A DNA stretch of 64,000 nucleotides from Amoebophrya sp. A120. Lineage: Eukaryota > Protista > Dinoflagellata. The position numbers and the translations under genes were made by a program. This document shows positions 3,401 through 53,131 of this stretch, piece after piece. A model generated the notes under the pieces. The model made no database searches and was not told where the DNA came from. It worked only from the letters and a program-made list of their open reading frames with translations. Each line of letters opens with the position of its first letter. The first letter of the stretch is position 1. Location: positions 1,378,094 to 1,442,093 of the forward strand of contig CAJINV010000010.1 in the NCBI GenBank assembly GCA_905178155.1. Direction: 5' to 3'.

Positions 3401-6400
3401 CTTCTTGGCCCAGGTTTGAGCCTAGTCTGCACCACAGCAGCATGCAGATTTCAAAAATAAAGCAAGTAGCCTTCTTTGAGCCTTTTTCGCTTTCAGGTTT
3501 GACCCTAGTTGCTGCAAGTACTATAGTTCTCTTGGCACCACGACCATGCGGCTGAAGTAGAGGCACAAGAAGCTCGTCAGCCGTATGGAGTTCTCAAATG
3601 TTACATTCTCAACTGTTACATGAATTTGTAATGCAAGACTGGCAAAAGTGAAAGGAGGAAGATTGCGCCTTTTGCATTACAAGTTTGGCGCAGATTTAGG
3701 TGCGGCGTAGCCCTTCGCAAATTTGTCATGCAGAGCAGCTTGATCCTGAGGATGATGATCGTGCTTTTGCATGGCAAATTCATGCAACAGTTGAGAATGT
3801 AACGTTTGAGAACGCCATAAGCCGTCCTACCACGAAAAGAATCTGAGAGTTCCAACACCGATGGTGCCAGCCTACGGAGGACTTCTACATGAGCTCCTGT
3901 ACGAGGAGAATGTACCGTTTTTTCGTTTGGAAGAGCACTCAGATGTTCTTCCGGTGGAAGAAGGACCACTACAAAGCGACGATGTTCATCCGCCAAGAAA
4001 GGCAAAGCATGACACGAGCAGGACCACTTCTCGGGCAAGTCAACATTCTGAAGGGCCGCGGCCACGGGCGGGCTCAGTATCTTCATCTGCCGCGACCGGA
4101 TCCTCTATGGCATTCTCAAACGTTACATTCTCAACTGTTACACGATTTGTCATGCAAAAAGAACATGAGCCGCCAGACGATCAAGCTGCTTCGCAAGACA
4201 CATTACCGAAGGGCTAAACAGCATCTAAATCTGTGCCAAATTTGTGATGCAAGACTTGCAACCCTGCCCCTTTCCCTATTGCTGTTTTTGCATCACAAAT
4301 TCGTGTAACAATTGAGAATGTAACGTTTGAGAACGCCATATCCTCGGTGGGCGGAGTAGGTCTTGCTCGTCCCACTACTCCTACTTGTACCGCTGAGTTG
4401 TACAACCATCAACGTCGGAGCGGCAGCAAGAGCATGAGCCGAGGCAGCAGTATCTTCAACGCCGCTTCAGCCCAGGCGTCCCCTTTGCGGACCGCCACGA
4501 AAACCCCGTCCCCACAGCTTCAGTACGCAGCCATGATGAGCCGCGCCACGAGTAGTGGTCACTTGGGCTTCGTTATTCCAGAAGCTGCCAAAGTTATGAA
4601 CTCCCCGCCAAATAACTTGGGGTCCGGCCCCTCCGGCAGAACTTCACCATTGCACGTGCTGCGGCAAACGGCGATGACGTCTTCGATTGAAATCGGTGGG
4701 CGGGAAAGTCCTCCGCCAGCTTTTTCTTGTACACAGGAAGAAGCTGCAAAAACTGATCGTCAACTTCAGGCCGTCGAGCTGGATGAAACAGAAACATCTT
4801 CGCGTGAGGAGAAGAATGTGAATGGAAATACAAGGCGCGTTTGTGTTGAAGAACAAACACTCGAGGACCATCATGAGCAAGAGGAGCAGGAGCGGATCCT
4901 GCTTCCGCAGCCGGATGATGTTGATATGAGCCATCTTCATGGTGAAGAACAAAAAGATGTTGAACAAGAAGTTTATAATTTTCCCGCCCCGGTGGCAGTG
5001 TCGCCGCAGCTACTGCAGGCGTGTGGACAAGCTGCAGCAGATCATCCTGGAGTTGGGGGGGCAGCTTCTGGAGAAGTAGAACTTGAGATCGAGAGAGTGG
5101 CCAGTCCTGAGCTAGCCGACGGTGCCTACACCAATTTAACCAGCCGCACCAACACGCCGCTGCAGCTTTTTGCGAACACCAATCAGCAGGACAACAACTC
5201 ATTTGCAGCTGGTGGATCTGATTATTATAGCACGAACGTATCCTGTGGAGGTGGTGGTGAACATACGCCGAAACATGATCATCAGCGTCAGCAATTATCC
5301 TCATTTTGTTCCCAGGACGAGAAGAAGGCGGTTTCTTGTACTAGTGCGCCGATCGCGGAAGGCAAGATGAAAATGCACGTCGGTGGCTCGTCCTCTTCGT
5401 CGTCGGCATCTTGCTTCCGCACCGGGGTCGCAGCAGCACGAGCTGGACCAGGTGGTATTCAAGAAGAGAAGTTGTCACCACTTCCGGCCACTCCGACTAC
5501 TTCCCCACGCTACGCTTTTGACCGAGCGAACTCGGGAGAGGGAAGCGTGGAGGAAAACTACAAGAACGATAATTCCGATCTGCCGCCCACAGTCGACCTC
5601 GACCAGTTCTGTTGTAATCCAGCTGATGCTTCTACTAGTGAACAGCATGGTGATGTTCTGCGTCATCTTCGTCTTGACCAGCGTCAAAATCATGAAGAAC
5701 CGCATAAGAAGCCGCTGCTTTATCGCGATCGCCGGAGCTCCTCCTGCACCACTGGTGGCGCTCCTGGGGTTGTTCTTCCACTCTCGGCTGGGGCCGCTGC
5801 ACCGTCGTCCTCTTCGCATTGTACTATTCAGGAGCGTCAACACATGGTGCAGCAACAGCCGGTTCCAGCGCGAAGCGTGCCGCCGATTCATGATTTGTTT
5901 GAGGATGTTGACCACGAAGATGGTGAACAAGATCAACAATACCATGCATACAACAGCTATCGGTGCGGGACCCCTCCTCAGACTCCTTACCCCATTACCG
6001 CGTTCGACGCGCACACGACATTTTTCCGCGCGCCCTTGTCTTCCAGCTCTTCCAAACACTCGGAATCCGCCCTTTCGCTCCCGTCGGACTGCAGACCGAG
6101 CCCGTCGGTGTTGTCGGCCCCGGACCCATCTTTTTTCAGCGACATGCAGCACAACACCTACCCCGCTAGGCGGATTAGTTCCGCGCCGGCGCTGTCCGCT
6201 TTAGCCAGCAGACGCAACAAGCGCGACTTGCCGGGCTTGCAGATAATTTTCCGGCAGAGAAGCGGTACGGGCTCTGTTTCCCCCTCGTGCTCTCCGACTC
6301 CTCTTTCCGCGGCGACGTTGCCCGGTGCAGGAGCTTCCGGGCGACAGGGTGGACAACATCCTGTCGTGAACAAAAACATGCATCACGATGCTAAAGCTCA

Positions 6401-8639
6401 TCCAGTTTCAGAAGCCGCTTGTTCTGTCGTGCCTTCTCATGTCGCTGCTGCTGATCATCTTGTTCCAGGAGGAGTCGTGTTGCCCCTCGGCACAACAATC
6501 GGAAAACAAGAAGAGCAAGGAGCTGCAAAAATCAGCTTTTTGGAGTCGTTAGCTGCACGCGGACCATCAGCTACTTCGTATGCGGGCGGAGCGATCGGCG
6601 AGGATCATCGTGAACATCCCCAGGAACTACAGCAGAGTGATGCAAGCTACCCTGCTTCTCACGGGACGATGTCGAGCACCAGACCTTTTTTGACTGGGAG
6701 ATCCGCTGCACCCTGGCCCTGCAGTCAGGATTGGACGAACTACGGAAAGGCAAACGCGCTTTTGCAATTCCAACGCGGAAATCGTGTTGAACAACATCAG
6801 ACGGAAAGCACACGCGTCGAACAATATCACCAGCCAACAACCGCTCCTGGCATTAAAAATCAGATGCAAGAAGAACACCAGCAGGCACTGCACCACCTCG
6901 AGCTGCAACAGCAGCAACGTCCAACACATGTTGGCGCGTATTACGTCGGAGGAGGTAGTAGTGTGCCATATAATTACAACAACGGAGGAGGAGCACCACC
7001 TCCACCTGCTGGTGCGCCAACTACATCATCTTCGCACGACGTTCTATACCAAGCGCTTCAATTTCAACAACACATCGCACAGCCCCCACCAGCCCTGGTC
7101 GTGCGCAACAAGCCGTCCTGGACTTCTGCGGTCCAGTTACCGGGAGCGGACCTGCCGTTGCGGCAGATCACCGAAGTCGATGAGAAGTTAGAACGGCAAG
7201 AATCCGACGCAGGTACAGTAGTGTCGGTCCTGACGACGTCAAAAGCCTCCTCTGGTGGCCGTCGGGCGGGCGCTGGTGGAGGACCTTCTGGGGAAGTAGA
7301 AACCCTTATTTCTGGAGAGCGGTCGCCGGTCAGTTCCCCGGAGGTTGAAAGTTCGCCGTCGCTGCCCTCACCAGTCCTTCCGCAGGAATATGGATATGTC
7401 AGGATCGAAATCGACCAAATCGAAAAATTTGTGATGCATAAAATGTAGGGCACTGAAGGCCTGTATTGGGGAGCAAGCAAATGAGGCCGATTGTAAGCCT
7501 GTTTAGGGGCATGCAATGTGCTGCCAGAGTAGCATGACAGGAGCAGCCTTCTTTGCCCAAACAGAATGACAGACTCGATGTGGGTGCCCCCGAAATTTGT
7601 CATGTGCCACTTGAAAACTGGGGCTCCAACTGACGTCGATTTTGTGCATCACAAGTTTTTCGATTTTGTCAATTTCGATTCTGACACTTCCATAAGGAAG
7701 AGGATGTTGATATGGCGGGCTCTGAAACTGCGCCGCATAGTATGTTGACACGGGGGGCACAACGAGGACCAAGAGGTCCTCGGACGAGGGCGATGAATGT
7801 GACTCTGCTACCTATTGAGGCTGTGGGCGGTAGTAGCAAGAATGAAACTACTAGCTCAGCAGGATCACGTGGCGCCGCCACCAATTCTTCTGGAGCAGAA
7901 AAAGTGCATTCAGCAACGAGATTGAATGCCGCGACAGCCCCAAATTCAACAGCTTTTCGTTGTAACAAAGTTCAAGCTTTTATGGACACACTCAACGGCA
8001 TCGTCGTGCGGAACCCACCTTACGTACATCCGAAAGTGACCATGGCCGAGCGACGAGCGGTAGTGGTGCAGCGAAGGGCAGAAGAGGAGGACCGGAAGCG
8101 GAAGGAGCTATTTGAACAGCTGAAACACAACACACTGAGAAATCCGGCGATAATTAATGCGAATATCCTGTGCAAAAGTATCGTATTCGTATAAATGCAA
8201 GCCTTGCATTACAAATCTTTGTCTTAAGGTAAATCCGCATTACAAATTTCATTTCTCATGCTGAGAAAATTTGTAATGCATTTCTACGAGTGCGATACTT
8301 TTGCAATTCATAGCGAATTTCCTGGACCAATCTCCGGAGAGCGTGCTCGAATATCAAATGTAAAAATGTCTGGGTCGGTCTGGAAGAATGCATGTTTGTC
8401 ATGCTTGTCTGGCATGACTCTTAAATCTGTCATGCACGTTACCCAAGAGCCCCACTTTTCTGTCATGCAAAAACGCAGTTTGTCATGCAGAATAGGCATC
8501 ATATAGAAGCTCAGAAACTTGTCATGCTGAGCCAGCACCTGTGGCCTCCTCATGATACGCCACCCAGCATCACAAGTTTCCAGACCCAGACACTTTTACA
8601 ATCCATATCGAAGATTTAGACGCCATTGACGCTGCCTAA
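475..8639 (+). CDS. Gene 1: large low-complexity (S/Q/A/P-rich) hypothetical protein, interrupted by 7 short TIR elements and one 1.5-kb insert
   Basis: ORFs 475, 1135, 1525, 3861, 4347 and 7712 join in frame after removing each element +5 nt and 2082-3576 (EISPD|LQRV, DPG|FLLP, EAR|QP|SYHE, TGSS|VGG, PQE|EDVDMAG, NAN|FLDQ, VLE|DLDAIDAA*). Stop at 8637-8639. The start is uncertain, and it could be two genes if 2082-3576 is not removed. Confidence 0.7.
1008..1341. mobile_element. TIR intron-like element, family A
   Basis: TAT..ATA, TIR GTGTCAGGATCGAAATCGACAAAATCGAAA, TSD CCGGA/CCGGA. Confidence 0.95.
1401..1710. mobile_element. TIR intron-like element, family E
   Basis: TIR TATTGAGAGGAAAAATCC, TSD CCGGG/CCGGG. 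Confidence 0.95.
2123..3534. mobile_element. Large TIR element between two copies of a 42-bp direct duplication (2040-2081 and 3535-3576)
   Basis: Imperfect IR CAATAGAAAAGCAGTACTGCAGCAACTAG (2123-2151) versus 3505-3534. The repeat has 1 mismatch. Internal AGAGCTCT/CTCTAGAG array at 3210-3390. Confidence 0.7.
3584..3819. mobile_element. TIR intron-like element, family B
   Basis: TIR TATGG.GTTCTCAAA.GTTACATTCTCAACTGTT, TSD AGCCG/AGCCG. Confidence 0.95.
4106..4340. mobile_element. TIR intron-like element, family B (opposite orientation to 3584)
   Basis: Same TIR, reverse-complement core, TSD TCCTC/TCCTC. Confidence 0.95.
7389..7694. mobile_element. TIR intron-like element, family A
   Basis: TSD AGGAA/AGGAA; homologous to 1008-1341. 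Confidence 0.95.
8164..8312. mobile_element. TIR intron-like element, family C
   Basis: TATNNNNTGCAAAAGTATCG ends, TSD GCGAA/GCGAA. Confidence 0.95.
8352..8607. mobile_element. TIR intron-like element, family H
   Basis: TATNNNNTGTAAAA.TGTCTGGGTC ends, TSD TCGAA/TCGAA. Confidence 0.95.
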
Positions 8640-8948
8640 GCCTGGGACAAGATGAACCTATTGAGTCCGTCGTGGTGTCATGCTGGAAATGATTTGTCTT
8701 TGCCCTGCAGTGATCTTCATCTCCGCTAAATCCTATACCCTGGATCGCACATCACAGGGAACGCAACCTCGCACGCTCATCACATAAACGAGCTACAGTC
8801 GACGTGTTGATGTTGCGCGGAGTTCTGTCTTGTTGTCATTTTTTCCCATGTCGCATCACAAAGTTTGGGAGAACGACGATATATCACGCTTACCTAGTAC
8901 TCAAGTGCGGTTGGTGGTCACTATGTCGATCAGAAAGATGTAGAGTAG

Positions 8949-11900
8949 ATGCAGAGGCTTGTATATTTTCATCCCGTTCTTGTTGTTCATGTTCATCACG
9001 ACCCCGTGTCGCTGACTCTCAGACAGTTCTTCCATTTTCATAATTCAGACGAAAGCCTTCGTACCAGCTTCCAACGCAGCGTGAGCGAGACCATCGGGCA
9101 TCAAGCTGACAGTATGGCAAGCCTGGGAAACCAGCGACAGCAGAACCAAGTTGCAACCCGGATGTCGGCGCTCCACAAGTTTCGCGCAGTGATGAGCGTC
9201 CTTCCGAGCCTAATGAACGATTTGGCGGCGCGGTGGGTGGTTCCTAGTCTCGGACAGAAGAACATGATTAAAAAGAGCAGTGGTCTGATCATGAAGCGGG
9301 GAGGTGGTGCAGCTTCAGCTAGTGCTAGTGTGGGCATCAACATTCCTAAAAGCAGCACTGCTGGCACTGTGCGTCGACCACACTTGGAGGCCACACAGGA
9401 GGAGGAAAGCGAAGAGGAAGATGATGCAGCAGGTGCTGTTCATGCAGATAACGCAAAAGACGCATTTAGCACTGATGTTGGCCTTGACCCTGGTACTAGT
9501 GCTGGTGACACCGGGTCGCTCATAGGCACGGAAGCGGCTGCGATGTCGACTGCAGCAGAGGATCGTGGTGAGGAGGGCCAAAAACTATTTCCGGGTCGTG
9601 CCACGAATCAGCGGTCGCCAGCTGCTGGAGTCCACCGACGCACTTCTAGAGCGGTTGGGCCGGGAGAGGCGATTGAGCTGGACGATGACCCAGTTCATTT
9701 CTTGGGGCGAGAACAAGAAAAAGCTCATGATCCAGACAACGAGTTAGTACCAGAGCAAGTGCAAGGGCAACAAGAACCGCACGGTGAAGTACATCAAGAT
9801 CAGGATGGGCTTTCCTCGACATCCTGCTCCCTTTGCGGGCAAGAGCACCATCAGGACTCGCACGAGCAGCCCTCCGCGCTGCATAAAATGCTGGACGTCG
9901 CAATCAACCAGGTTCTGCAGAACTACGTTGTTTACCCACTTGTCCGGGGGCTCGACACGGTGGAGGAAAAAATCATCGAGCACAGCAGGCGGTCCAGCGC
10001 GCAGAACAGCCCGAGCCTTTCGTTTCAGCACCAAGCGCCCTCGTTTTTCATGCGAACTACTAGTGCGGAGGAGGACCACATCAACTCGGGGACTAATGAT
10101 GGAAAGGATGAAGACGGTGTTGCGCACGGAGCTCCTGAGCGAGATCTTCAGCACATAATGCCTACTGCTTCTACTAGCGCAGCCGCCGGAGGACCACCAA
10201 CATCATCAAATGTTGTCCCAGCAAACGCGCAACAATCGCAGAGCCTGTTGCAATTGAAGATCAACCGCAACAAATCTGCTCCAGCAGGACTGAATCAATT
10301 GGGAAAGAGGACATTAAACGATGGCACTAGTGGGTGTAGTCCTGAGCAGCAGTCGAGCTGCGGTGCGAGCAACCTGAACGACCCGACGGAGACTTCTGAC
10401 TCTGCCACGGTGACATCCGAGCTGACGGCCGGCGTACCTGACCTGGCGCCGGATGACCCTTTGCTACAGGCTTTAGGAGCTGCTTCTCGGCAGGAGCTGC
10501 AACTCGCAGGTGGAGGTGGAAATTCGCATCATCATCAGCTCGTACAACGAGGAAATGGACATCAGCAACCTGCTCCGGCGACACCGTCGAACTCATCAAC
10601 CCGTGGGGCTACCACGTTGATGTCCAGTATGAATCTGAGCACGGTTCTTGGCCCGCGGCTCTCCGCTTTACTGACCATGTTCGTGGAAGCCGACGCGGCG
10701 GACGGTCTGGAGCTGCAGCGCTCCCGCCAGGAAACCGAAGACCGTATGCGCGAGATGCTCTACGCCGGAGTGCGCCGGTGTGGGCTTTTACCCTCGGTGG
10801 AACATCAACCAGAGAAAGACGGCAAGAATTTGGGCCAGGTCCCGGTCGCGCGGAGACAAAGCGAGCCGGGGAATATGGGTAGCGCCTTGCGGATATCAAA
10901 TGTAAAGATGTCTGGGTCTGGAAACTTGTGATGCTGAGTGGCGTAGCATGAGGAGGCCACAAGTGCTGGCTCAGCATGACAAATTTCTGAGCTTGTAGGT
11001 GTTGCCTATTCTGCATGACAAATTGCGTCTCCCCATGACAGAAAAATGCGGCTCTCTGGCAACGTGCATGACAGATTTAATAGTCATGCCAGACAAGCAT
11101 GACAAACATGCATTCTTCCAGGAGACCCAGACACTTTTACATTTGATAGCGGAAGCAAGAAGGTGAACACATGGTGAATCAGAAACAGCTGTTACAGCAG
11201 AGCGGACGCGGGTCGTCTTCTTGTGCGGATGTACTAGAACAAACGGCTTCAAGATCATCATCTTCAAATCAACTTGAACGAAGGGCCAGCACGGGTACCT
11301 CCGCAGCGAGCCATTTGGCGTCTAGCGTACCAAAATCGTCGCTGACCACGCTTCCAGGCGGAGCAGGAGCGAGCAAACCTCCACTTCTGCTGCACCGGGA
11401 GGACAATTCCAGAGACCTGCGAACTACAAACAAGGATAGCGCCGGCTCTGTGGGAGCAGGTGGCTCGGTTGATGCCAGAACATCAAGTTCTAGTGGCAAG
11501 GACGGCACGGCAGGAGCAGGGTCATCTACTTCAGCAATCCCGTTGTACGAGCAGCAAGGTCGTGCTGCTGCAAACAACGGTGGGAAAGGGAATCATGCTG
11601 GAATATTAGATGAGTCTGACTCATTCCCCTCAAACTATGATGCCGATCTGCTGTTTCTCCCGGCCTCCCGATACAAGCTAAGTTTGCCCGTGATTCGCAA
11701 GATGCTCCTCACGATGCACGCCCTGCACCGACGGGCGCACCTTTGTCATGACGACTTTTCCCCGAACTCTTTTCGGATTGACAGCGAAGGAAATCCGATG
11801 CTAATCTCGCTCGAAAGCGCCAAGAAAATTGAGGTATGATAGAAAAGATCATAGTAGCGGCTTTTCAACATTTTCTTTTTCGGGTCTGGAGAGTCAGTGC

Positions 11901-23234: not shown

Positions 23235-26200
23235 TTGATCATTTCACTTCTAGCAGCTATCTTTACGGTCATGAAGGGCGAAACAGATACAACCGGAAGT
23301 GACAGGCCCAGGACATCGGGGGCGCAGCAGGAACAACAGACTCCGTTCACGTCAACGTCCTTTGCACATGCTGTTCCGATGTGCCTCGATCCGACGGGCC
23401 ACGGCCGCGCGACGGGTGCGCTGTCCCCCTGTGTTGAGCAGGAACAACTACAGCGGCCAAGACCATCAGTACTACAGCATGTACTAGCGCCGTCGGCCGG
23501 TAATACTGACGGACAACTTGGCAGGGACCAAGAGCTCGTGCCGCCCGCAGGTGATCAAGAACAAAATGAAGAAGCAGACAATATTGACGATATTATCGAC
23601 GAACTCGATAGAAGTGGCTCGGAGGTGGAAAGTGGAGACCCCTTGGACTACCTCCCGCTGGATAACTTGTTTGACGACACGTCGGCCATCGTGAATCAGA
23701 TGCAGCAATACCATTACGACTCGAGCGCCGCGATTACCCCGACCGTGGATTTGGGGTTTTATGGCGTCCGCTTTCCGCCGGTGCAGATTCCGGACTTTGG
23801 CGATCAGGGCCTGTCGAATATGGAATCCGATGTGGACATATCAACGGAAAAATGAAGTCTTTCCACGTACAATAAACGGTCTAGTGGTTGCTGCACTTCT
23901 TCACAATCACAGATTGCAGCTATGCTTAGCGCGCCTGCTCCTGCCGCTATGCAATACAAATTTGTTTACTAGGGTGATGTACGACCACTTAGTTTCTGCA
24001 TGCATCACGAAAATGAATTCCATTTATACGGCGTGTAGCTACATCACTTTTTCCTGTCTTATAAGGCTCCGAAGCGGAGCGCCAGGTTTTGGACCCACAC
24101 CCGTCTTCCCCTTCTTCTATCACAGGAAAAAGTGTTCACGTTAACGGAATTTGTGATGCAGCGATGCATCACAAAACGTGTCAGAGTTTGTCATGCATAA
24201 CATGCATATTAGACTACATTTGTGATGCATGACCGTAATCTGTGAAAACCGTTCACGTTAAAACGTTTTCTTGTGATATCTTCTCTCACTGACTCACCAT
24301 CTCCCCTTAGCGAGGGCGACGAAAGTGCCGTGCAGGTTTCGGTCGCCGTGCAGCAGAGAAGTCCCGCTGGTGTCAGAGGTTCTTCTACAACCTCCCACAG
24401 GAGTCACAACACGCCTCATGATCATCTCCGCGAGCAGCCGCTTGAGGACCCGACGAGAACCAGTCAGCGGAACTTTTTGGTTCCAGGAAACACGTTTCTG
24501 TCGTTGGCCACTGAACAAGGGAGATGGGGCATTTTACGGACCGAAAATCGATTTCAAGGTATCATGACAATTTGTTCGTCTTTGTTCTACAAGTGTTTTT
24601 GGTTTTCTTCTTACGCGGCTGCATGACAGAAGCATAGCCCGCTGCTCATTCCGGCGTCAGCCTCAGCACCAGAACGAAGATGAGTTGTAGCCTCAGCAAT
24701 GATGCAATTTTACGATTGTGAATTCCTATTTTTACCTCAGGTCAAAGACGCGATCGGGCGTCAGCACCAGTGTGCGACGATGCAATTGGATTTCCTCTTC
24801 CCGATGCGGTTCAACCTGCAGTTCCGCACGCAGGCGGACGAACAGAAGGAAGCCGAGGCTGCAAATGCGGAAGGAGAACAAGAAAAGGGAGCAGCTGCAG
24901 CTGCTCCGAAGGAAAACAAGGAGAACAAAAAAGAGAAAAAACAAGCCGCTGCTGCTGCTGCCGCACGTCCGCGGATGATGGACGGAAGAGAAGTGGAAGA
25001 GAAGGAACCGCGAGCGTCTGCTACGTCTGCGGACGGGGGTGCAGCGGCGGAGGCGGGAAAATCTGCGGCGGACAAGGAGAAGGAAAAAGAACAGAGGATG
25101 GAAGCGGTTGGGCTGGAAGGTGTGCTGAAACCCGGTCACGAACGGCCGGTTATGATCCACCGTGCCATTCTGGGGTCCGTGGAGATGATGCAGCTGCAAC
25201 AAGCGACGTCGTGGAGATGTTGCGCTCTATGGTGCGTATCAAAGGAGCAAGTGAATCACTTTCAAAAGAATCATAGGGCCGAAAAAAAAAAAAATTCGGA
25301 GCGTCCCCAACTGCCGTAGCGCCTGCAGCTTTTTTCCCCGCGCCAAACACAGCTGGTCGGTAGATTGCAGTGGGCGAATGCTTGGGAAGGCTGCGACCAA
25401 AGGCCCCAGGCGTCGCATTTTGGTAAGGAGAGGACTGCGAGATGTAGCGCGCAGAAGATGCCATAGAGGATACCCCAAGACCAGCCCCAAAGCACCATAC
25501 CATGGTGCATAATGCTACCCCGCATGGTGCTACTGGCGCATTATTCTTACTCTTTCCTTACTCTACTGTTACCAAGTGGCGGAAGTGGAACAGTGGAGGT
25601 GTAATCACTTGAGATGCTCAGCCTGTTTCAGACGAAAAAAAAGTCAAACCCACTTGATATCTGCTTGGGTGATTTGACGCGAAAAAGACGTCTTTCGGGC
25701 ATCAATTTGATGCCAAAAGTCGCGACTTTTTGCAGGGGTGATTCAAGCAGATACTAAGCGGGACGAGTCAAATGAATCATAGGGCTAACTGATAGCTACA
25801 AAACGCAAGGTGATTACACCTCTTTTTTTGCTTCGAAAAAGATGAACTTTTGGCAAAAATTGACCTTTTTTCAGAAAATGCGACACCCTCGAGACGCTAC
25901 GCCCGACGGTATGGAGGTGTAATCACTTCAGTTTTGTGGTGCCGCTTTTCCTATCTTTAGCAATGGGCTTTTGCTTGGTATTTTGGGTTGTGAATGCTTC
26001 CCCCGAGTTGTTTGCGAGCTATTCAGGCGCGATGGCCCCAGCATCCACCTATGGCCATTGCGTTCGTCCCCCGTAGCCACCAACCAAATAGCGCAAACCT
26101 TATCGAGAAAGGCGCGACTTTCCTGAGAAGCGTCGCTGTGTCTCAGGTTACTTGGTTGCATATGTTGGGCGCTACCTTATGCGTGCGAGCCTGGCCATGC

Positions 26201-28313
26201 ACTGCGGTACTTGGAAAAATTTTTTTTTCCGTATGGTGATTCATTTGTACTGTGATTCATTTGCCCCTGTGATAGTTGCAGATGCAGCTCCAACAAGCGA
26301 CGTCGTGGAGATGTTGCGCTCTCTGGTGCGGGGAAACGATTTTGTGCATGGGTACGATGATCGTGAAGAGGACGAGGGTGATCGTGTTTTTGTCGACGAC
26401 AACAGCAAGAAAAACACAGCTTCGAGTCATCAGCAGCGTCCTCTCAAGTCGTCGTGTGGTCCTCGCAGCTGCACCGAGATGAAGGGTCTTCTGAAAAATA
26501 AATCTTCAGGAATGAGAACACCGCCCGGCGAGGTGGACTACAACAAGAAGCAACAAGATTCATCTGCCACTACTTATCCGAGAACAGGTGCCGGCGGAAC
26601 ATCAACCAGCCAAGGGGGCCTTGTGTCTTTTCTGCAAAAGGAGGCCGTTGGGGTAAAAACAAGTGAGCACGGCATGAAGATCTCAGGCCAAACCAGTGGA
26701 CGAGGTGAGCAACCGCAAGAGCAGTTCTTTTTGTTCCATCACGAAGATGAACGTCGGTCTTTGACCAAATGTTCTTTTTCCTCTCTCACTTCATCTTGTT
26801 CTGCTCACGGACTAAATATGAAGGCAGATGATGAAATCAACGGTGCAGCTGGCTCTTGTTACAAACGTACCACTACGCAGAGTACCACCGCTACGCTACC
26901 GGGTGGCATCGATGAGGAAGGGCGTTCGTTCTCTTGGTCGTCCTCGGATCTTTCCCCTTCGCGGCCTCTGACTGGTGGATTTTCACCTTCCCTGAGTTCT
27001 GCTCGCCAGGGTCTGGAGCATAATCGCGGCAGTACTGCGGTTGGTGAAATAGGAGTAGTCAAGGGCAACGACCAGAACCAGCCGAGTGGTGGTCGAGCGC
27101 TTGTTCTGTCTCCACCAAGAATACGCAATGCAGTTATGTCATCTTGGTCTGGAGGAAGATTGCGAGGTTTGTCATGCATGTTTTGAATGATCCATGATGT
27201 CTGTGATGTTGCATGAGCCGGAATCACATATTAGCTGAAGGCTTTGTGATGCCACCTCTTCCGCATGAGAAATGACCTCGCCGCGTAGCGTCAACTGGAG
27301 TTTTCTTGCTGGTCATGCAATACAAGTTTTTTTAGCATCCAGAGGCAGCATCACAAGTTTGGAATCTTCCAAACGACCCAGACGTAGTTGCATTTGATAA
27401 CTAACTCGAGGAGCTCCTCAACTTCCGGGAAGTAGTACTAGTAGAAGAAGAACTTCGACGCATCGTGACTATGTGCTTCTCCTACCTGACGACCATGCCC
27501 TCTTGCGCTCGACACGGAACGGCAGCGCGCTGATACTAAACGACCGTCAACTACTACAACAGGAACAGAATGATCTCCTCGTTCAAAATGTCGTGACAGC
27601 AGAAGCCGGACCGGCTCCTCCTGTAGAAGTTTCGACGGCCGTTATCGTCGTTACGATTATCCACAGAAAAAAACCCATCCCCATCCAATTTGTTTATGCA
27701 AAACACGTTGTATCAAGTGATGAGTTTGTCATGCAAAAAATGGATGTGGATGGTTTTTTTTCTGTGGATAACGATTATGCTCCTTTCATTACTTCTCTCC
27801 GTTTGCGTCGGGGTGCTGTTCTTCTGCCGCAAAGCGTGCATATTTCGTAGCGCCGGGCGTAGTCGTGGCTCCGGAGGTGCGCAAAAGGTAAAGGGAATAA
27901 GAAACGACCACGTTGAAAATAAAGCGTCAACGTCACGGATTTTTAAATCATCGGTGATGATGAAGGAAGAAGACCAAAAGAACATCAACGTTGTAAATAA
28001 AAATCGCCGAACTACAACGTCCATCACAACAAGTATGCGGAGGAGCGGTGCGACAGCTGGTGCAGCTCTGTCCAGAAGATTCTCAAAGCCACTTTTGCTC
28101 GCACCAGCTGATGCGCCACCGCCGAAAAGAAGTGTGGTGAATCTTGTTCGCGACGATCGAAAAACAACGTGCGATGCGGATGCGGCCGCTTGTTCCCCTT
28201 GCTCCCCTGCTCTCGAGGAGATTCAGACGGAGGATGAGGGCGAATATCTACCTCGTGCTCTTACTTTCGGGGCGCTGGGAAGACGGACCCACAACGATAG
28301 CGACGTCGTGTGA
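23235..28313 (+). CDS. Gene 3: chimeric low-complexity membrane protein (hydrophobic N-terminal segment, C-terminal TM helix)
   Basis: Exons 23235-23838, 24069-24117, 24284-24558, 24741-25236, 26331-27121, 27405-27657 and 27776-28313 join without stops. The TM helix AVIVVTI|MLLSLLLSVCVGVLFFC forms only after removing 27658-27775. The start codon is uncertain. Confidence 0.6.
23839..24063. mobile_element. Degenerate TIR intron-like element
   Basis: TATCAACGGAAAAATGAAGT versus the reverse complement of the right end TATAAGACAGGAAAAAGTGATGT. The TSD has decayed (GGACA/AGGCT), but +5 removal restores the frame. Confidence 0.6.
24118..24278. mobile_element. TIR intron-like element
   Basis: TATCACA.GAAAA ends, TSD TCTTC/TCTTC. 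Confidence 0.9.
24505..25184 (+). pseudogene. Threonyl-tRNA synthetase catalytic-domain fragment (two partial exons plus GT-AG intron 24559-24740), embedded in gene 3
   Basis: WPLNKGDGAFYGPKIDFK|VKDAIGRQHQCATMQLDF..RFNL...RPVMIHRAILGSVE are hallmark ThrRS motifs. Similarity stops abruptly on both sides, and no other ThrRS exons are in the window. Confidence 0.85.
25237..26274. mobile_element. 1038-bp TAT..ATA TIR element flanked by a 50-bp direct duplication (25187-25236 and 26281-26330)
   Basis: TIR TATCAAAGGAGCAAGTGAATCAC versus TATCACAGGGGCAAATGAATCAC. Many internal GTGATT(C/A)/(G/T)AATCAC motifs. The duplication has 2 mismatches. Confidence 0.85.
27122..27399. mobile_element. TIR intron-like element, family H (diverged, TAC start)
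   Basis: Core homologous to 62439-62698; TSD AAGAA/ACTAA; +5 removal restores the frame. Confidence 0.75.
27658..27770. mobile_element. TIR intron-like element, family F
   Basis: TATCCACAGAAAAAAA.CCATCC.CATCCA ends, TSD ACGAT/ACGAT. Confidence 0.95.
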
Positions 28314-30787
28314 GGAGCAGCAGCCAGAGATTCTGGAAGAAGCATTTCTGATGTGACAAGAAATGTAATTAGAATTATGTAATCTTTATTCCAGCTCTAT
28401 TTTTCCATTCGCGTACACCGCTGGAGATAAAAGAGCAGTTAGCTGCCACAAGGACGACCAGCAAGGTCAGAATAATTTTGACCATAATTGACCTTAGCCA
28501 CAAGGAGTACCAAGGTTCGACCAGTTTTGATCAGTGGACTTCCCTAATATGTGCTCTCTTTTGCGCTTTTTTCTTATCAATAAATTACGGGTAGTGTTTC
28601 TGATTATGATTTCGACACACCTTTATTTTCTTTTCGTAAAACTTTCGATCTGTAGTGTTGGCAGTGCAAACATGGCAGAACAATAGCTATAACATCTTTA
28701 TTTTAGGAATTAGGCCCTTCGGAAGTTACGCGAGAAGCAACGACTGCCACCTTTACCTTTAGAGCAAGTCACAAAATCGAGCGCTCCGCATCTACCGCAC
28801 GCTTATCGCACTCACTGGCGAGAGGTCAGTCGAAGCATGCAGGTGATGATGCCGGGGCGTTGTCTTCTGATTTTGTGACTTTATTTTGCAAGAAAAAACA
28901 ACACGAAAACATCTAGAGATAACCAAACTTCTTCGACATTATACATAAGAAACTTTTAATTAAAAGAAGATATTTCAATTTGATAGTGGGGGAAATAGAT
29001 TGAGTTGACATCATTTTTTTCTTTCAAGTCGCATGTACCTGTACGATTAAGGCACGTAACATAGGTGTGTTATCGAAAAATTGCCGCTTTGTCATTCTCA
29101 GAGCACCTGCAAGATCTTTTGAAAAAAAAGATTTGCGCTCTTCTCTTCCGGTCCATGAGGGCCTGGGCTATATCCCGATGGTGTGGCTCACTGGTCTAGT
29201 GATTTTTAACGTCTTTTAATATCTCGTATTTTTACAACTCATTCTACATTCTTCTTCAAATTTAATTATTTCAATGCTATGCTATTTTCACTAAGGAACG
29301 AGGCACGAATCTTCAATATTGTGGTCGCAACGTATGTCGATCATTCTTCTCCCTCCGTCTGGTGGGGAAAATGGCTTATGGGCTTTGGTTTTCCCTTCGG
29401 TGGAGTTTTTTTTTGGTTTGCTTTATACTTACGAGATTTGAACTATTTATTTTTCACAGGAGATGCAAGCATATTATCGAAGACCATAGTATTGGTAGTG
29501 TGGTTTCATTTATCAACTTCTTTTTCGTGCTTCTGATCTCCGCCCTTTGGCTCTCCGGGTGATTTCATAGTCAATCATATTATATTGCTGCACATTCCTC
29601 GATTTTTTTTTTTGTGTTTGGTCACTTTGTCGTGTATCTCAGGAATTTTTCTTTTCAATATGTATGCATTTGCCATAGTTGTTCCGTCTACTTTTTTCGC
29701 CCTCATGCTCAGACTCAACCCGAGGTGGATTCTCTGTGGTTAAGTAGTGTGGCCTGTCGCGAGTTCTCTTCATGCCGGGCGTTTGAAGAATGTGTGGACC
29801 GAACAAGTAGACGCTTCAGATGGACTCTTGTAGTTGCCTACGTTAGTTTGACTTTGTGACGCAAAAGAAACGCCTTGTTCAGTTTGAAGATGTGAAAATG
29901 AGAACATGAAGATGTAGATGATGAAGCTGTGTAAACCTAAACATGAAAGTACTTTTTACACACGACGCCCCTACGTCGTCTTGTTGTTAGTACCTGTGTA
30001 GATGTGCTGCCTACTTAGCTATTTTCCCGTCCTATAAGAAGAACTTCCTCTCGCACACTATTTGTCTCATCCGGAGGGAAAATGGAAATTCTTCCGACTA
30101 GTTTTATTTTTTCTTTCTGTTTAAAACAAACGATTACTGCAGCCGTACGGGTTATTTCACTTTATTCCACCTTTTTCGCTTTTATTATCGACTTGGTGCA
30201 GAGATTGGGTTTTTTCCGATTCTGGTAGTTACGTCTGACAAAAGCAAAAAACAAAAACTTGATAAAGGTACAATTACAACTATGACTTTTTTTAGGAGCA
30301 AACAGCTCGTCAAAGACATTTCTTTCATAGATGAATTTCTTGGAAAAACAACATAATGGAATAGCGGGCTATTGAATTGTCTTGTCTGTGCTTGACGCCA
30401 GACGAAGTGCGGACCTGTTCAAGGGACGTGTGCTGGGACACAGTAAACGCGTGGATGTAGAATGTTTTGGGGTCTTTATTTTCGTTTTTTCTTTGTGCTT
30501 CATGATGAAATTCTTTTTCATGACTTGTTGTCTTGTTTTGTGCTGCGGTGAGTTTCTCTCGTCCGGTTTTTGGTTGGTTTCGCTTTTTGTCTGTTGCTTC
30601 TTTTCTACTTACTCGGATGCACTTACTCGGATGCGATGACGATGAGAGAGTCAGTAGGTGTTCTCCCAAGATCCCGTGGTTGAAGATCGGAGGTATGCTT
30701 CAGCTTATCTGAGATACGAATATTGACCAGGAGCGACTCTCGCACCAGCAATGTCAATGTTGGGCCGATGTTGACAAGAAAAGAACC

Positions 30788-33700
30788 ATGTTGAAAAACC
30801 TCGTTCGTCTGTGGCGTGCCTCGGACCACGCAGGCCTCACATCAGATACAGGAGACAGAAGACTGAGACAACCGCCATACGAGCCTGGTGTAGTTCCTGC
30901 TAGTACAACAACTTTTCGCGACAGAAGTGGTGAAAAAGCCACAAGCAGTAGTAGTGCAGACGATGTAGAAGCGGGGCTGGTAGAATCACAGCCGGTTTTC
31001 CCCCCACGACGACCTCCCTATTCTACGGTCCCGGAACACGCACTTTTGGACCAGTCCACTGGAACGCCTTCGTCTACTGCTGAGTCTGAACCTTCCCTGC
31101 CGTCGCTTGCATGGGGGGCTCGTGACGATGAACTACAAGGAAGCATATTAAACTACTCAAGCGGGAGCGGCAAACAAGACGAACCGCTGATAGTACGAGG
31201 GCAGCTGTCGACTCAGGAAGAGCTCGACGTGCCACCGCTTCCAAAAATCCTAGTTGGAGATCAGGGCCGCGGGGGAAAGCAGCGCAGTACGCAAGAACTA
31301 CAGAGAAACCTTGCGGACGAACCTTCAAAACCGCCAGTAATTCCACCCGGATCTGGATCTTCCCGGACTGCCCGCTCGTTGGAACGGGAAGAACTACTGC
31401 TGGAGGAAGAGAGGATTAGGAACAATGGGCCAGCTTATCATGTCGGCGACGACGTGCGTGAGGAACTGGACGAACAAGAAAAGAATCAGGATTACTACCT
31501 GCAAGAACCACAACCAGATCCGATCATCAACATCGACCACTACTCCAAGCTTTTCCAGGATGAAAAGCAAGTCGTCAGAGAACTTCGGAACGAACTCTGG
31601 CTCCACGACAAGGACGAGCCGTTTATGAAGTACAAAAGTCAAGGTTTCCAAGAAAAAGTCCACGATCCGGGAGGTGATAGAACAATTACAGATCATGGCG
31701 GGGTACAACTAGAGCAGGGGGCCGCAGGTTTATCCTCGCCCACCAGTCGGCTGAAGCTGATTAGCGAGGAGGACGAGATGGACCACGACCGGGACCGCCA
31801 GTCATCCAGTACAACTTCCGTGAACAAACATCAAGTGCGGCAGCGCACGGGTATCCAAGTTCACTTGCTGGAGGACGAGGAGCGGCAAATGCGAAACCAA
31901 ACTGACGGAGACGTCGGCGGGGCGGACAATTATACACCCGGCGGAATTGTAAACCGTGGCTCCTACAATGGCAGAACTGCTACTTCTGTGCGAGTAGCAG
32001 GCGGTTTAAGCAGTAGTTCATCTCCCAAAACTACTGCGGGTCCCAACTATCGTCGCGGGAAAGCTTTTGTTCAGAATTTAAACCTGAAAGCCTCGGGTGG
32101 ACAAAAACTCTGGGCCTCGGTGAAGGAGATTGTTTCGAACCAATTTCACTTTTCCCCACCCGTGATTTTCCAGCGAAATATGGACTACTGGCGGTACGAA
32201 TCGAATCCGGTGTATGTTTATGCTTTACAAAACTATCGTACTAGTATAAATCGCATGACAAATTTTCTCAGTATGAGAGATAAAATCTGTAATGCAGATT
32301 TGACTTGAGAAAGAAATTTGTAATGCATGAATACGATTACTACTAGTACGATAATTTTGCACAGGATAATGTTCTCATGCCGGACGAGAGCTACATGCCG
32401 TTGTGGCGGGTCGGGGCCGGGTATGACGGTGCACAACTACTCCTCCTCCTGTCCCTCATTTGTCATGCAAAAAACCAAGTCCGCGTCGTCCTTTTAAGTA
32501 CTGTCTGCATGGCAAATTTTCGATTTGGGGCCTCAAAGACTACCTGTCCTTGTGCAGATTTGTGATGCGAAAGGCACACTCCGCGCGTCGCTTGTGTTGC
32601 TGTTCATGCAATACAAATAAGGGGGAAGGGCAGTTGTGTACTCTCATATCGGAATTCCCGGCTTCTGGAAGGACGATATGCTTATGTGGGACAGTTCCTC
32701 CACTTTGGAAGCCGCCGCGAACAACATCAATCGTCACTTTTTCTCCTCGAGCTGGGCGATGGAAAATCTGAACAGCGTTTCCAGCACCGACACCTACTCG
32801 AAGTCCTTTTTCAAGTGCCGAATTGCCTTTTGCGAGTATTGGCGCCACCGAGGGTTCCACGAGTGCGTGGTATTGCCGATCGAAGGGCAGGAAAGCTACT
32901 GCCCGTTTTCGGTGAGTACGGAAGAAGAGGACATAAATAACGCTGTGGACGATCGAAATTATGACGAGAAGACGAGTGGGAGTGCAGCAACACGTTCGAC
33001 AGCAGCGGCTACGGGCTCATCTCCTGCTAGTACACGACCTCGACCAGCAAGTAGAACAAAAGACGAAGTCAACACTCTAAGCACCGACATCGACACGATC
33101 CGGGCGAAAGCGGTGGCGAGCGCGCGAAAAGTCTGGATCAAAGACATGTGTCCCAATATCGCCCCCGCGCAAAGCAGGCCGAAGCCGAAGAGCACAAAAG
33201 CTATGAGCAGTGCTGTGGTTGGTGGAAGTCGAACATCTTCGCAAGAACTACCAGGGACAGAAGCAAATGCTGCTAGTAGTGCCGCTGCTTCCAGAACACC
33301 ATCAAAGACACGACAACTACACCATGAGCATCCGCACACAACTGGTACAACGCAGTTCCGCAACTACGACCCGCGACCCGACATCCGCGGGAAACTTTTC
33401 TGCGAGCAGGATACGGGCGAAACTTGCTACGACGACGGTTTCTTCGGCGCTAAAGCGATGCATTTACCGAGCCGGTGTCTGTGGTTCCACGCGAAATGTC
33501 GGAATAACAGATGTGTGTGTCCGAGTAACAAGTGCTTTGTACACGGGCGGTGCGTGGACGTGAACGTAAAGGGAAATCAGGAACGAGGAGGAGGCCGGAG
33601 TAAGACAACTCGCAGTGGCAATTACGGTGGCCGCTCAGTTGTATCAACGAATAGAGGGGGCACGAACGCGCAAAACTTAGCTGCAGTCGTGGCACCACAT

Positions 33701-36700
33701 ACTACTCGTTCCTCCTCCCCCTCTGCATTCACGCTCGACCGAAAGAACCCTGGAACGGAAGTGTGCTTGAATAGCAGCACCGCACCGTCTTGCAAAGTGG
33801 GCTCCTGGAAGGGTTTCGTTTACCGAAATAGACTGCACTTGACAGTCCTGCGCCCGGTGGTGGACATTTTCTCACCTCCTGGTGGGAAAAACACGCGGTC
33901 ACTAGCTTCTTCGACGGCACACAAGGAGAAGAAAAAACATAGTCGGGACGAAACGAAGATAAGGAACAAGCATGGGGAGCAACACCGTTTTATGAAAAGG
34001 CTGCCAGATTCCGCGTTCGACGTGATATGGAAGCGTCAGGATCGAAATCGTCAAAGTTGAAGTAGTTTGCGATGCATAAAATGCAACGCAGAAATTGCCT
34101 CTATTGCAGAGGACGCAAGGGATGCAGATTGTAAGCCTGTTTAGGGGCAGAAATTGAGCTGCTAAAGTAGCATGACAAAAGGCGTCTTCCGTGCCCAAAC
34201 AGCATTACAAACTGGATTTGAGTTCTACCCAAATTTGTCATGCGCCGCTTGAAAACTAGGCGCCAACTGGTATCCGTTTTATGCATCACGAACCATTTCA
34301 ACTCTGACGATTTCGATCCTGACACTGACTCCCATACGTGATCGAATGCGAGTACAACCTTTTCCAATGCGACATCAACAAATGGTATCCACAGTAAATT
34401 TCCCGCACACGTACAAATGCGGTCTCTGCATGACAAAACTTGGCTCCTATCCTAGTTTAGCATGACAAGTTTTACGCTCCAAATTGGTGAAATTTGTGAT
34501 GCATCTTGTACATGTGCGGGAGATTTGTCTTGCATAAATGGAAGGGGTTTCTCCACGACACAGGAATCATCTGCGACTACACGTTTTCGCGCGCTAGGAG
34601 ACTTGCGGAAGGGGTAGATCCGGAGAAAGCAATTGATACCACCGGCCACGACACTTTGAATGTCATCGCAGAAGATTCTGACAGTAAAACCCCCGTCGCG
34701 GCAGAGCCGCCGTTCGACATCCGCCGGGCGTGTCCGGATATCAAGATGAAAGACAAATCACTACTTCAGAACGCACAGGTCGTTGTTGAGGATATTAAGG
34801 AGGAAATTCAGGACTTTGCCGAGGAAGTGGAGGGCGCTTGGGAGAACGTAGTGGAGCTATGCAATGCAAATGCGCTACATCTACTACAATCCGCATATAC
34901 AAATGTTGGCAAGTGATGTTGTTGAAAAAATGAGGCTGCATTTTGTAATGTTTTGTGAGGTAAAAGGATGGAATTTGTATATGCAGTATTGCAATTACAA
35001 CAATACAAGCGCAGCTTTTGCAGTGGATAGGCGCAAACGCGTACTCACATCGTCCAGCCGATCCACTCAATGCCCGGGAACACACTCAGGCTGCTGGGAA
35101 ACCCGCAAAACAAGTTGAACCACCTGTACCGGTACAACGCTGGCAGTGGGAAACTCGAAGAGACGGATGAGAGTTTGATAGGAACAAGTCAGGGCAGCAG
35201 TACAAGTTCAGCTGTGTTGTCCGGAGGAGGTTTGTCATCTGAAAGGAGGTCTGGCACGGTTCAGCCAACTGCGTCGAACAGCTTGATCAATAAATCGTCC
35301 AGCCGGAACAGCATGCTGTCCTCCCCGTCGTTAGCAGATGTCGTTCTGGAGGTCAGCGCGAGGTCAAAGGCAACCAAAATCACGTTTGATGAGGGCCGCG
35401 GGGACGGTGGGAGCGAACTGAATGCTGATGCACCAAATCGAAAGCAACAAACTACATCGCAAGGCCTCCGCGGCGCACTGGAGAACACAAATGAAGACCA
35501 GGCCTCCTCTTCTTCGACAACCGCTTCTGTGACACCGTACCCAATCGAGATACAACTCATCCATGACTACCGTGCTCGGTCAAACTTCAAAGATTCTAAC
35601 GAACCGGAGGCCCCGAAGCCCAAGTACAACAAAGTTTTCCTCTCTTTCGGGCTGGATTGGGGCTACGGACAGGCACAGGGGATCAAATCCTGGGGCGCGG
35701 GCGGCCCGGCCAGAACCGTTTATGACACTTGCAGCATATCAAAAGTAAAAATGTCTGGGTCTGGAAAAGTGTAGACTTGTCATGCAGATTTTCCATGAGC
35801 CATGAGGTCGGGAATGCGGGACTTAGCATGACAGACTCTGCGAGGTCTCTGCCATGCCTATCCTGCATGAGAAACCCCCCTCCAACTTGGTCAAAATTGT
35901 ACAGCTTTTGGCACTCATGCAACACAGATTTTCGCATGCTTCAGATTTACCATGACAAGTTGGAATCTTCCAGACCCAGACATTTTTACATTTGATACAG
36001 CAAGCAGAAGTGCGACTGGCACTGTTTGAAAGATAACAGCTGCAGCTTCAAGTGCTGCGAGAACGATTTGTTCCGCCAGGTGGAGTTTCTACGGGTGGAA
36101 GGCACAAACGTATGCAATACAAATTTCCCGTACATGTACAAAATACATCGCAAATTTCACCAATTTGGAGCGTTGTATGTAAAACTTGTCATGCTATAAT
36201 GGGGATGGAAGCCAAGTTTTGTCATGCAGAGACCGCATTTGTACGTGTACGGGAAATTTCCTGTGGATAAAACGAGTACGAAACCTACGAAATCGTGTGC
36301 CGGGGCGCGGGCTACATAGACCCCATGGTGGAATTTGACGGCGCACTGTCTCAGTACAAGCAGAAGTGGCAGAACGAGGTGCTAACGATTTTGAAATTGT
36401 GCACGATCCCGGGCGTTTCCGCCTTGGCGGCGAAAGTCGGATTGATCATCACGCCCTGGGTCTGGTTCGCGGTTGGCATCGTCTGGTCCTTCTCTGACTG
36501 GGTCTTAGCGCACCGCCAGCAGGACAAGTTTCACGTATCCTGTGCAAAAGTATCGCACTCGTATTGCAGTCACGCATTACAAATTTTTTTCTTCAGGTAA
36601 ATCAGCATTACAATATTTTTATTTCTCATGCTGAGGAAATTTGTAATGCATTTGTTTTGTATGAGTACGCGTGCGATACTTTTGCAATGCATATCACGAG

Positions 36701-52700: not shown

Positions 52701-53131
52701 CACCGTAGTTGTCATGCAGGTTTGCAATAACAGGAACATTTGTAATGCGCACCTACTACATGAGAGGAATTTACAATCGTGTTTTGGCACTTGTAATGCT
52801 GTAAACAGGATGAGGCGATGAGCTTGCGATGCGACTGTCCTTGCCAACCTGCACTAAACTACAAAGACGAACTTGTCATGCATGGCTACCAAAACTCCTG
52901 GGTTTGTGTTGCCGAGTTCGCAACTTGACTATGGGGTGGGGTCGCTTTTACCAAAGATAAACGATCACAAACAGTTCTTCCGCGCGGGAGAAGGAGATGG
53001 AGGCACTGCGGGCGCGCGACGACGCCGCGGAAAAAGCGGATATTGAGGAAGAAAAGCAGAAAGCGCTGCGGTTGCGGGAGGAATTGGGGCTGGACTCCTC
53101 CGATTTGAGCGGGAGTCAGATGTCGGTATGA
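46703..53131 (+). CDS. Gene 7: N-terminal RNI-like leucine-rich-repeat protein with a long acidic low-complexity C-terminus
   Basis: LRRs IRKLQLEKCNINDVAC, VQVLSLNENHIKSVG, LTHLFLNRNHIGPVGAKSLA, LQCLEVRENCIDDWG and LRQLDLQSNPIGENG. Seven TIR elements plus 5 GT-AG introns (47052-47241, 47757-47977, 48537-48703, 49489-49684, 49986-50160) give one ORF ending SQMSV*. Confidence 0.8.
46759..46873. mobile_element. TIR intron-like element, family F
   Basis: TSD GTGGA/CTAGA; homologous to 27658-27770. Confidence 0.9.
47293..47466. mobile_element. TIR intron-like element, diverged family C
   Basis: TATCCTGCGCAAAAG / CTTTCGCGCATTCCATA ends, TSD TTGTG/TTGCG; splits an LRR. Confidence 0.85.
48048..48212. 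mobile_element. TIR intron-like element, family H (short)
   Basis: TSD CGACA/CGACA. Confidence 0.95.
51379..51639. mobile_element. TIR intron-like element, family H
   Basis: TSD CAGCA/CAGCA. Confidence 0.95.
52012..52173. mobile_element. TIR intron-like element, family C
   Basis: TSD GGTGG/GTTGG. Confidence 0.9.
52221..52374. mobile_element. TIR intron-like element, family G
   Basis: TSD CGCGA/CGCGA. Confidence 0.95.
52674..52959. mobile_element. TIR intron-like element (diverged singleton)
   Basis: Imperfect IR, TSD AACGC/AACGA; removal extends the ORF to the stop at 53129-53131. Confidence 0.8.

Follow-up and report, generated by a model that had tools for sequence, protein, structure and literature searches.

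Removal of introner elements in Amoebophrya sp. A120 is polar to the transcript and indifferent to element orientation

Introners in both orientations within forward-strand genes

The window analyzed here is a 64,000-nucleotide stretch of the dinoflagellate Amoebophrya sp. A120 (assembly GCA_905178155.1, contig CAJINV010000010.1, positions 1,378,094 to 1,442,093 of the forward strand), in which + strand genes are interrupted by short elements with TAT...ATA inverted ends. These are the published introner elements of this organism (Farhat et al. 2021, PMC7789003), a system that is already known. Members of the same family were found in both orientations within + strand genes, and their removal was observed to be polar with respect to the transcript yet indifferent to the orientation of the element. 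We consider it highly probable that this removal occurs at the RNA level, is guided by the element ends and works two ways; that the spliceosome is the machine is, in our estimate, an even call. The reading that we favor, by a slight lean, is that A120 introners in both orientations are removed from pre-mRNA by a modified spliceosome reading signals in the symmetric ends.

A scan in which TAT at both element ends was the selection criterion returned 34 TAT...ATA pairs in the window, or 31 distinct elements once three nested or cross pairs were dropped, against 0-1 pair per shuffle in 10 shuffles. Together with the elements at 32422 and 34026, these form the set of 33 used for statistics; two more, at 47293 and 52674, came from a profile scan. 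The elements are 113-334 bp long, and 29 of the 35 contain stops in all three + frames. The ten elements named in the initial annotation were recovered at their starts, all with TAT...ATA inverted ends and a 5-bp direct repeat that is perfect in nine and has one mismatch in the tenth (12273). Across the window set, the flanking repeat is perfect in 22 of 33 elements, and A occupies positions 11, 12 and 13 in 24, 27 and 31 of 33 left ends and in 26, 27 and 30 of 33 right ends. An end-to-end hairpin was predicted for each of the 13 intact elements folded (z -3.8 to -12.2 relative to 15 shuffles), with 11-19 end-to-end pairs within the first 20 nt; Rfam gave no matches. Being short and non-coding, with inverted ends and a fixed-length target duplication, the elements are of the non-autonomous terminal-inverted-repeat DNA transposon type (MITE, a miniature transposable element with inverted repeats), and these ends and duplications point to a transposase that would insert them either way.

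Several elements belong to repeated families (A, B, C, G and H), five of which the initial annotation had described as reverse-complement pairs. As the symmetric ends match in both directions, they were trimmed and only the interiors were compared for orientation. Forward and reverse interior identities were 0.53 and 0.73 for family B (the two copies of which are 286 bp apart), 0.54 and 0.87 for H, 0.52 and 0.71 for A, 0.52 and 0.71 for C, and 0.45 and 0.80 for G. Because the trimmed interiors align better when reversed, all five pairs are true inversions rather than an effect of the inverted ends, as had been claimed. The features of the first host gene and its downstream region are as follows.

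3527..16125, + strand: host gene 1, ~3,070-codon frame with 11 TAT elements and 2 other introns; in-frame model, 5' start tentative
3584..3819: family B introner, 236 bp; perfect 5-bp target duplication; removal inferred from the frame
4106..4340: family B introner, 235 bp, opposite in orientation to 3584; 5-bp duplication without mismatch; removal inferred from the frame; present in the genomic run
7389..7694: family A introner, 306 bp, oriented as 1008 and 34026; frame spanning the junction, 1127/174 codons
8164..8312: family C introner, 149 bp; a single X3 contig (depth 3.6) skips 154 (149+5)
8352..8607: family H introner, 256 bp; a single X3 contig, with a 27-letter side, skips 261 (256+5)
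8636..9046, + strand: non-canonical intron, 411 nt; joint 8634>9046 in X3, one contig, 27-letter side; in-frame model
10894..11148: family H introner, 255 bp, opposite in orientation to 8352; X3 and X7 skip 260 (255+5)
11834..12035, + strand: canonical GT-AG intron (control); skipped in the same X3 contig as element 10894
12273..12431: family C introner, 159 bp, opposite in orientation to 8164; duplication copies differ at position 2; X3, X7 and X8 skip 164
12515..12789: H-related introner, 275 bp; duplication copies differ at position 3; X3, X5 and X8 skip 280
12886..13106: introner of the family of 32422, 221 bp; duplication copies differ at position 2; X3, X5 and X7 skip 226
13179..13489: family A introner, 311 bp, opposite in orientation to 7389; X3 and X5 skip 316
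15484..15804: introner of the family of 1401, 321 bp; duplication copies differ at position 1; X3, X5 and X8 skip 326
18407..19049, + strand: non-coding degenerate element; alternative joints 18406>19050, 18414>19050 and 18429>19027

Direct evidence for removal comes from transcript-like contigs of four runs (X3, X5, X7 and X8) that were mapped on 3300-23299 at 99% likeness; being contigs and not reads, they yield joint positions and no splicing efficiency. Thirteen joints were listed, eight of which fall on TAT elements and skip exactly the element length plus 5. These eight, out of 11 covered elements, are 8164, 8352, 10894, 12273, 12515, 12886, 13179 and 15484, and they include both orientations of families C and H. 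No joint was listed at 3584, 4106 or 7389, where contig cover is thin, and this counts neither way. One X3 contig skips element 10894 together with the GT-AG intron at 11834-12035, one contig ends in nine untemplated As at 21841, and the stretch 21976-22642 has zero depth in all four runs; because of these three features, the runs behave as spliced RNA. A raw-read run, X9, gave partial matches on repeats only (3 of 30 bins) and none on unique sequence.

Reading frames point in the same direction. Removal of each element plus 5 nt produces + strand frames of 1913 codons (10 elements), 1301 codons (5 elements) and 932 codons (5 elements), which removal of the element plus 3, 4, 6 or 7 does not give. 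The frame test is weak at 3584, where the open stretch upstream is just 19 codons long; for both exons around the B elements, the +5 frame was chosen by a codon model that had been trained on different genes. In host gene 1, the 411-nt intron at 8636..9046 joins two long frames into one gene; it lacks an end-to-end hairpin (fold z 0.5) and is likely a decayed introner. A kinase-like stretch was detected in this gene (Pfam PK_Tyr_Ser-Thr, E 3e-05 on one exon), and public protein searches, themselves weak, matched no annotated protein to it.

For the second host gene, an exon search of public proteins led to one protein, P0001, with the source name Amoebophrya sp. A120. Its residues (1888 of 1888) and junctions (10 of 10) all agree with the element+5 model, and these junctions cover G both ways and C both ways inside one gene; P0001 is an annotation of the same DNA and is only partly independent of the model. 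A search with one exon of the 49.7-53.1 kb gene, bearing on register 4 versus 5 at 52674, matched nothing. Beyond the elements below, host gene 2 holds introners at 32422, 34858, 35737, 37152 and 37399.

30788..38446, + strand: host gene 2, 1888-aa protein, 10 introners; same sequence as public protein P0001
32219..32368: family C introner, opposite in orientation to 8164 and 36536; junction agrees with P0001
34026..34336: family A introner, oriented as 7389; junction agrees with P0001
34386..34536: family G introner, 151 bp; junction agrees with P0001
36111..36269: family G introner, 159 bp, opposite in orientation to 34386, 37399 and 52221; junction agrees with P0001
36536..36693: family C introner, oriented as 8164; junction agrees with P0001

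Interiors, joints and frames thus bear out the proposal in the initial annotation that elements within + strand frames are removed regardless of orientation. Its +5 rule has transcript support for C and H either way round and for A when reversed; for G in both orientations and for forward A, the basis is the frame and the annotated protein, and for B it is the frame and the target duplication only, with no read support.

Register and polarity of the cuts

None of the equivalent cuts at the eight read-supported element joints gives GT-AG. Conventional splice sites specific to each orientation were rejected, as shifts of the same length with GT/GC-AG are available in only 4 of 33 elements and at inconsistent offsets. 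Where the duplication is mismatched, its letters reveal which copy is kept: the read joints retain the upstream letter at position 1 (15484), position 2 (12273 and 12886) and position 3 (12515), or four of four, and P0001 does the same at 32422, 37399 and 34858 (three of three), where the downstream letter would alter the residue.

With respect to the exact cut, the element joints permit a cut after duplication position 3, 4 or 5. Four joints that lack an intact duplication favor position 4, with an N-TA start in three of four and an end 4 nt past ATA in three of four; background frequencies are 1-2% of positions for ATA and 4-6% for TA. Specifically, joint 8634>9046 permits 3 or 4, with 4 giving a C-TAAG start and an end 4 nt past ATA; joint 18429>19027 is unambiguous, its start lying one base ahead of TATC (30-letter sides, X7 and X8); and at joint 18406>19050 both motifs fit at one of three shifts. 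The likely cuts are therefore 1 nt ahead of TAT and 4 nt past ATA. In the element at 46759-46873, the downstream duplication copy has diverged at two of five positions and now has an AG precisely where the 3' cut is predicted, which may mark a stage on the way to a canonical acceptor.

A larger sample was obtained by scanning one H-family end against 36 of 64 parts of a metagenome collection. At least 131 loci were found, with all 80 of those listed coming from one assembly, and the elements reach 96% identity to the window copies; none of these loci overlaps the unique flanks of the window. Both ends were located for 95 copies, of which 83 have a perfect 5-bp duplication; perfect repeats of 3, 4, 6, 7 and 8 nt occur in 1, 1, 0, 0 and 0. 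Two copies with fewer than three of five duplication matches were dropped, leaving 93. Orientation relative to the inferred coding strand was 50:43 (p 0.53) among these, and 31:21 (p 0.21) among the 52 with a larger strand margin. The strand caller was correct for 14 of 14 window elements outside its training genes, the margins of which exceed those of most loci; wrong calls would bring the ratio closer to even. At the inferred register, GT and AG occur together in 3 of 93 copies. A preference for purine at the first intron base, seen in the window, failed in this larger set and was dropped. Taken together, the interiors, joints, ends and larger sample support the earlier idea that recognition proceeds through the symmetric termini.

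The machinery of removal

In the mechanism that we favor, a transposase would insert the element in either direction and, each end being the reverse complement of the other, the transcript would present the same end signals and hairpin either way. The intron in the transcript would always start with N-UAU[G/C] and end with a U-run, AUA and four more bases, the cuts being placed 1 nt before TAT and 4 nt after ATA. N-UAU would take the place of the usual GUA(U) donor of the organism, with the first base relaxed, and the end-to-end hairpin would bring the 3' cut close without an AG. End symmetry of this kind explains two-way removal and leaves the machine unfixed.

In terms of the spliceosome itself, canonical donors in the window, which were picked by hand, begin with GTA in 15 of 15 cases and with GTAT in 7 of 15, compared with 4.5% of window GTs. 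Also in favor are the 411-nt intron with its C-TAAG start, which is skipped despite lacking a hairpin, and the use of alternative donors in the non-coding element at 18407..19049. Published findings detailed below count for it as well: the near-complete set of spliceosome proteins, the canonical introns that share the repeat layout, the N-T ends of A120 and TTA ends of A25, the undetected snRNP27 with its link to +4 U donors, and the spliceosomal introners of other algae that work either way.

A considerable body of evidence weighs against this reading. Such freedom at intron positions +1, -2 and -1 would be very unusual for spliceosome catalysis: the predicted first intron base is unconstrained in the 93 H copies (A27 C22 G29 T15), and only 8 of 93 end in AG. 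No branch-point motif shared across families was seen when the right arms were inspected by eye, and the donor-like bases are buried in strong hairpins in 13 of 13 intact elements. One in four of the duplication-free joints lacks an N-TA start and one in four lacks the ATA+4 end, namely the 18414 start, without TA, and the 19026 end, not 4 nt past ATA. The hand-picked canonical donors include only one with read support; a donor-blind model gave A at +3 in 11 of 16 and T at +4 in 6 of 16 with visible errors, and the models of two automatic intron callers were partly wrong. The transcript data carry cautions of their own, as X3, X5, X7 and X8 derive from one sample of one study and their "RNA" nature is the guess of the tool. 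Moreover, the joints at 8164, 8352 and 8636 rest on single contigs at depth 3.6, two of them with 27-letter sides that represent a whole micro-exon. Finally, U1 snRNA was undetected in Farhat et al. 2021 (PMC7789003), and the 1/4 offset resembles the 3/5-6 offset of Euglena, for which the authors favor non-spliceosomal factors (PMC12501133).

Many of the same points speak for a dedicated non-spliceosomal nuclease and ligase, which would bind the terminal stem and the paired TAT/ATA, make staggered cuts 1 nt before and 4 nt after, and release circles or linear RNA in the manner of Euglena. We rate this as a serious contender somewhat short of even odds. The unconstrained junction bases of the 93 copies, the strong end-to-end hairpins with signals inside the stem, the lack of a shared branch motif by eye and the undetected U1 are all in its favor. 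The Euglena code likewise consists of an inverted triplet with unequal spacers, N3-CDG...CH'G-N5-6 (PMC12501133), Euglena introns leave as circles (PMC11282704), and a route through RNase III and a ligase has been proposed for diplonemids (PMC12621601). Nonetheless, the hairpin-less 411-nt intron is still skipped (one contig), N-TAT matches the local canonical donor, two of the three joints of the non-coding element at 18407..19049 lie outside the strong stem, and the purine bias at the downstream exon start drops from 25 of 33 in the window to 56 of 93 elsewhere. A stronger form of this idea, to which we give marginally less credence, is that A120 possesses a second, non-spliceosomal splicing system with its own code, N1-TAT...ATA-N4, independent of the Euglena code and of the same staggered geometry, which removes inserts whichever way they lie. 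If so, transposon insertion into exons would be nearly free. The initial annotation had reasoned that two-way removal implies a non-spliceosomal reaction. That implication fails, as spliceosomal introners of Polarella and Aureococcus work either way; the RNA endonuclease/ligase part of the proposal survives as a live rival, though it is not implied by two-way removal.

The other branch of that proposal was excision at the DNA level before transcription, analogous to ciliate internal eliminated sequences (IES), with transcripts made from empty-site templates. Ciliate IES are transposon-derived inserts bounded by TA that are precisely removed with one copy of the flanking repeat and leave somatic DNA; the window elements, by comparison, stay in the genomic run and have variable 5-bp duplications. 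That genomic run, X1, is of a kind not on record and was judged genomic by its even depth over exons and introns. Its contigs pass from element through exon to the next element at depth 41.5-45.3 with no differences (4314-7445, 7668-8190, 8580-10922, 11125-12297, 12557-12931 and 13451-15541), bridge five borders with at least 31 letters on each side (7389 left, 12515 right, 12886 left, 13179 right and 15484 left) and contain 8636-9046 whole. Were an empty-site allele abundant, these contigs would be expected to end at the borders. With the elements in place at single-copy depth in this one run, and with element-free contigs that are also spliced at a GT-AG intron and carry an A-tail, DNA excision is unsupported. 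The kept duplication letters, furthermore, follow the direction of the transcript in four of four read joints and three of three annotated ones, and dinoflagellates are not known to have a separate germline nucleus from which elements could be restored. On the other side, a transposase reaction is in principle consistent with the transposon-like ends and with the exact loss of one duplication; X1 may be the source sample of the window, its contigs drop rare variants, and its joints listed are 15, dominated by other element copies, with 1135 beyond these, so that rare or stage-specific excision is compatible with the data. Overall, we judge this explanation very improbable.

Strong hairpins flanked by short repeats are also the classic setting for template switching, and the data are contigs and not reads. 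An artefact in which reverse transcriptase jumps the hairpin at the 5-bp repeat, the genes really being broken, is nevertheless the least probable explanation considered. Removal restores the 1913- and ~3,070-codon frames over 10 and 13 interruptions, the elements bear stops in all three + frames at the frequency given above, and the joints are exact even where the repeat is mismatched or absent.

Neighboring sequence and comparison with known systems

Additional observations concern the elements and their surroundings. The octamer TGT[ACG][AT]TGC was counted 105 times in 7.5 kb of element sequence, with 3 copies in 22 kb of exons and 8 (7 sense, 1 antisense) in 2.5 kb of canonical introns. 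It is a candidate binding repeat for the transposase, and by this sequence pattern some of the canonical introns may have arisen by conversion of old elements. Elements of greater age, in which ends or duplications have decayed, lie at 61906-62118, 62229-62420, 47293-47466, 52674-52959, 27122-27399 and 23948-24061, and removal of the first four by the same rule leaves frames open. Canonical introns and elements are both present in a leucine-rich-repeat gene at 46703-49497 (LRR_6, E 5e-11) and in a small gene at 58173-59120 with an EF-hand-like motif by eye and no Pfam match on its two exons.

Around host gene 1, some 45 nt of coding sequence near 2041 recurs in the same frame near 3538 (region 2038-3583), and between the repeats lie ~1.45 kb of multi-copy GC-rich DNA (X1 depth 246-323 versus ~50). 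This insert may have split host gene 1, the 5' part of which would then be the frame with elements 1008 and 1401. Downstream of its stop, X3 and X5 contigs extend a further 5.7 kb (16126-21841) to the A-tail at 21841, and the longest open frame there is 172 codons; this is possibly a very long 3' untranslated region, the contig being no proof of a single transcript. A ~55-nt repeat occurs at ~18377 and ~19076. Elsewhere, 24744-25184 weakly matches the core of class II tRNA synthetases (PF00587, E 0.0038, below the cut-off), is followed by apparently non-coding DNA and is possibly a synthetase fragment, and positions 1-200 form a degenerate tandem array of short palindromic units with periods of 11-23. 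GC-rich intergenic stretches at 39400-40400, 54200-55100, 57000-57700 and 60000-61100 differ from nearby genes and resemble 2300-3100; they are perhaps another repeat class.

What the present analysis contributes is a sharper splicing code: either orientation works, the bases at the junction are unconstrained, and the cut seems to be fixed and polar. The question of how tens of thousands of introns are spliced without GT-AG is thereby narrowed to two mechanisms, and the element+5 rule is usable by gene finders for this lineage.

According to the published account (PMC7789003), A120 introners have inverted repeats starting from TAT, seven variable bases and an A-run, with direct repeats of 3-5 nt. 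The organism has 66,565 RNA-supported introns, 65% of them non-canonical, with the removal mechanism left open, and 15% of its canonical introns share the same repeat layout. Nearly all spliceosome proteins are reported there, with snRNP27 undetected; loss of SNRNP27K accompanies a +4 U donor preference in yeasts (PMC10581693). The ends of the main A120 non-canonical introns are all N-T, and those of A25 start with TTA and two purines (PMC7789003). The N-T starts in Table S4 are consistent with the 1/4 register, which Figures 3, S19, S23 and Table S7 of the same paper may already show. No partner transposase was found in A120 by Farhat et al. (PMC7789003), and a candidate integrase-like family is described in a second report (PMC12130899). 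The literature searched, from which most subscription papers fell outside, held no statement on orientation or fixed register for Amoebophrya elements; in the accessible text and supplement of Farhat et al. (PMC7789003), 'strand' had no matches and the 'orientation' passages (12 of 14 places) concern gene order. The window elements share ends, direct repeats, families, hairpins and non-canonical RNA-supported junctions with the published introners and do not differ in kind. The paper, in the portion seen, does not discuss insertion orientation and calls the splice sites variable relative to the hairpin; in the window, removal is shown for both orientations and the data favor one polar register.

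Two-way removal alone will not surprise specialists, because symmetric introners are known to work either way. Those of Polarella glacialis are inverted-repeat transposons with target duplications that serve as introns in either orientation (Roy et al., 10.1101/2020.10.14.339549), and the same behavior is described second-hand in that source for Aureococcus anophagefferens. Introners of these two species supply or recruit G[TCA] and AG sites, whereas the A120 window elements need neither. A further structural parallel is with the nonconventional introns of euglenids (PMC12501133, PMC6221363 and PMC11282704), which share terminal pairing, an inverted triplet, unequal spacers, direct repeats and a suspected MITE origin. 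The euglenid triplet is CDG/CH'G with spacers of 3 and 5-6, whereas the window ends lack the N3-CDG...CH'G-N5-6 signature and carry TAT/ATA instead, with likely spacers of 1 and 4, and the two lineages are unrelated.

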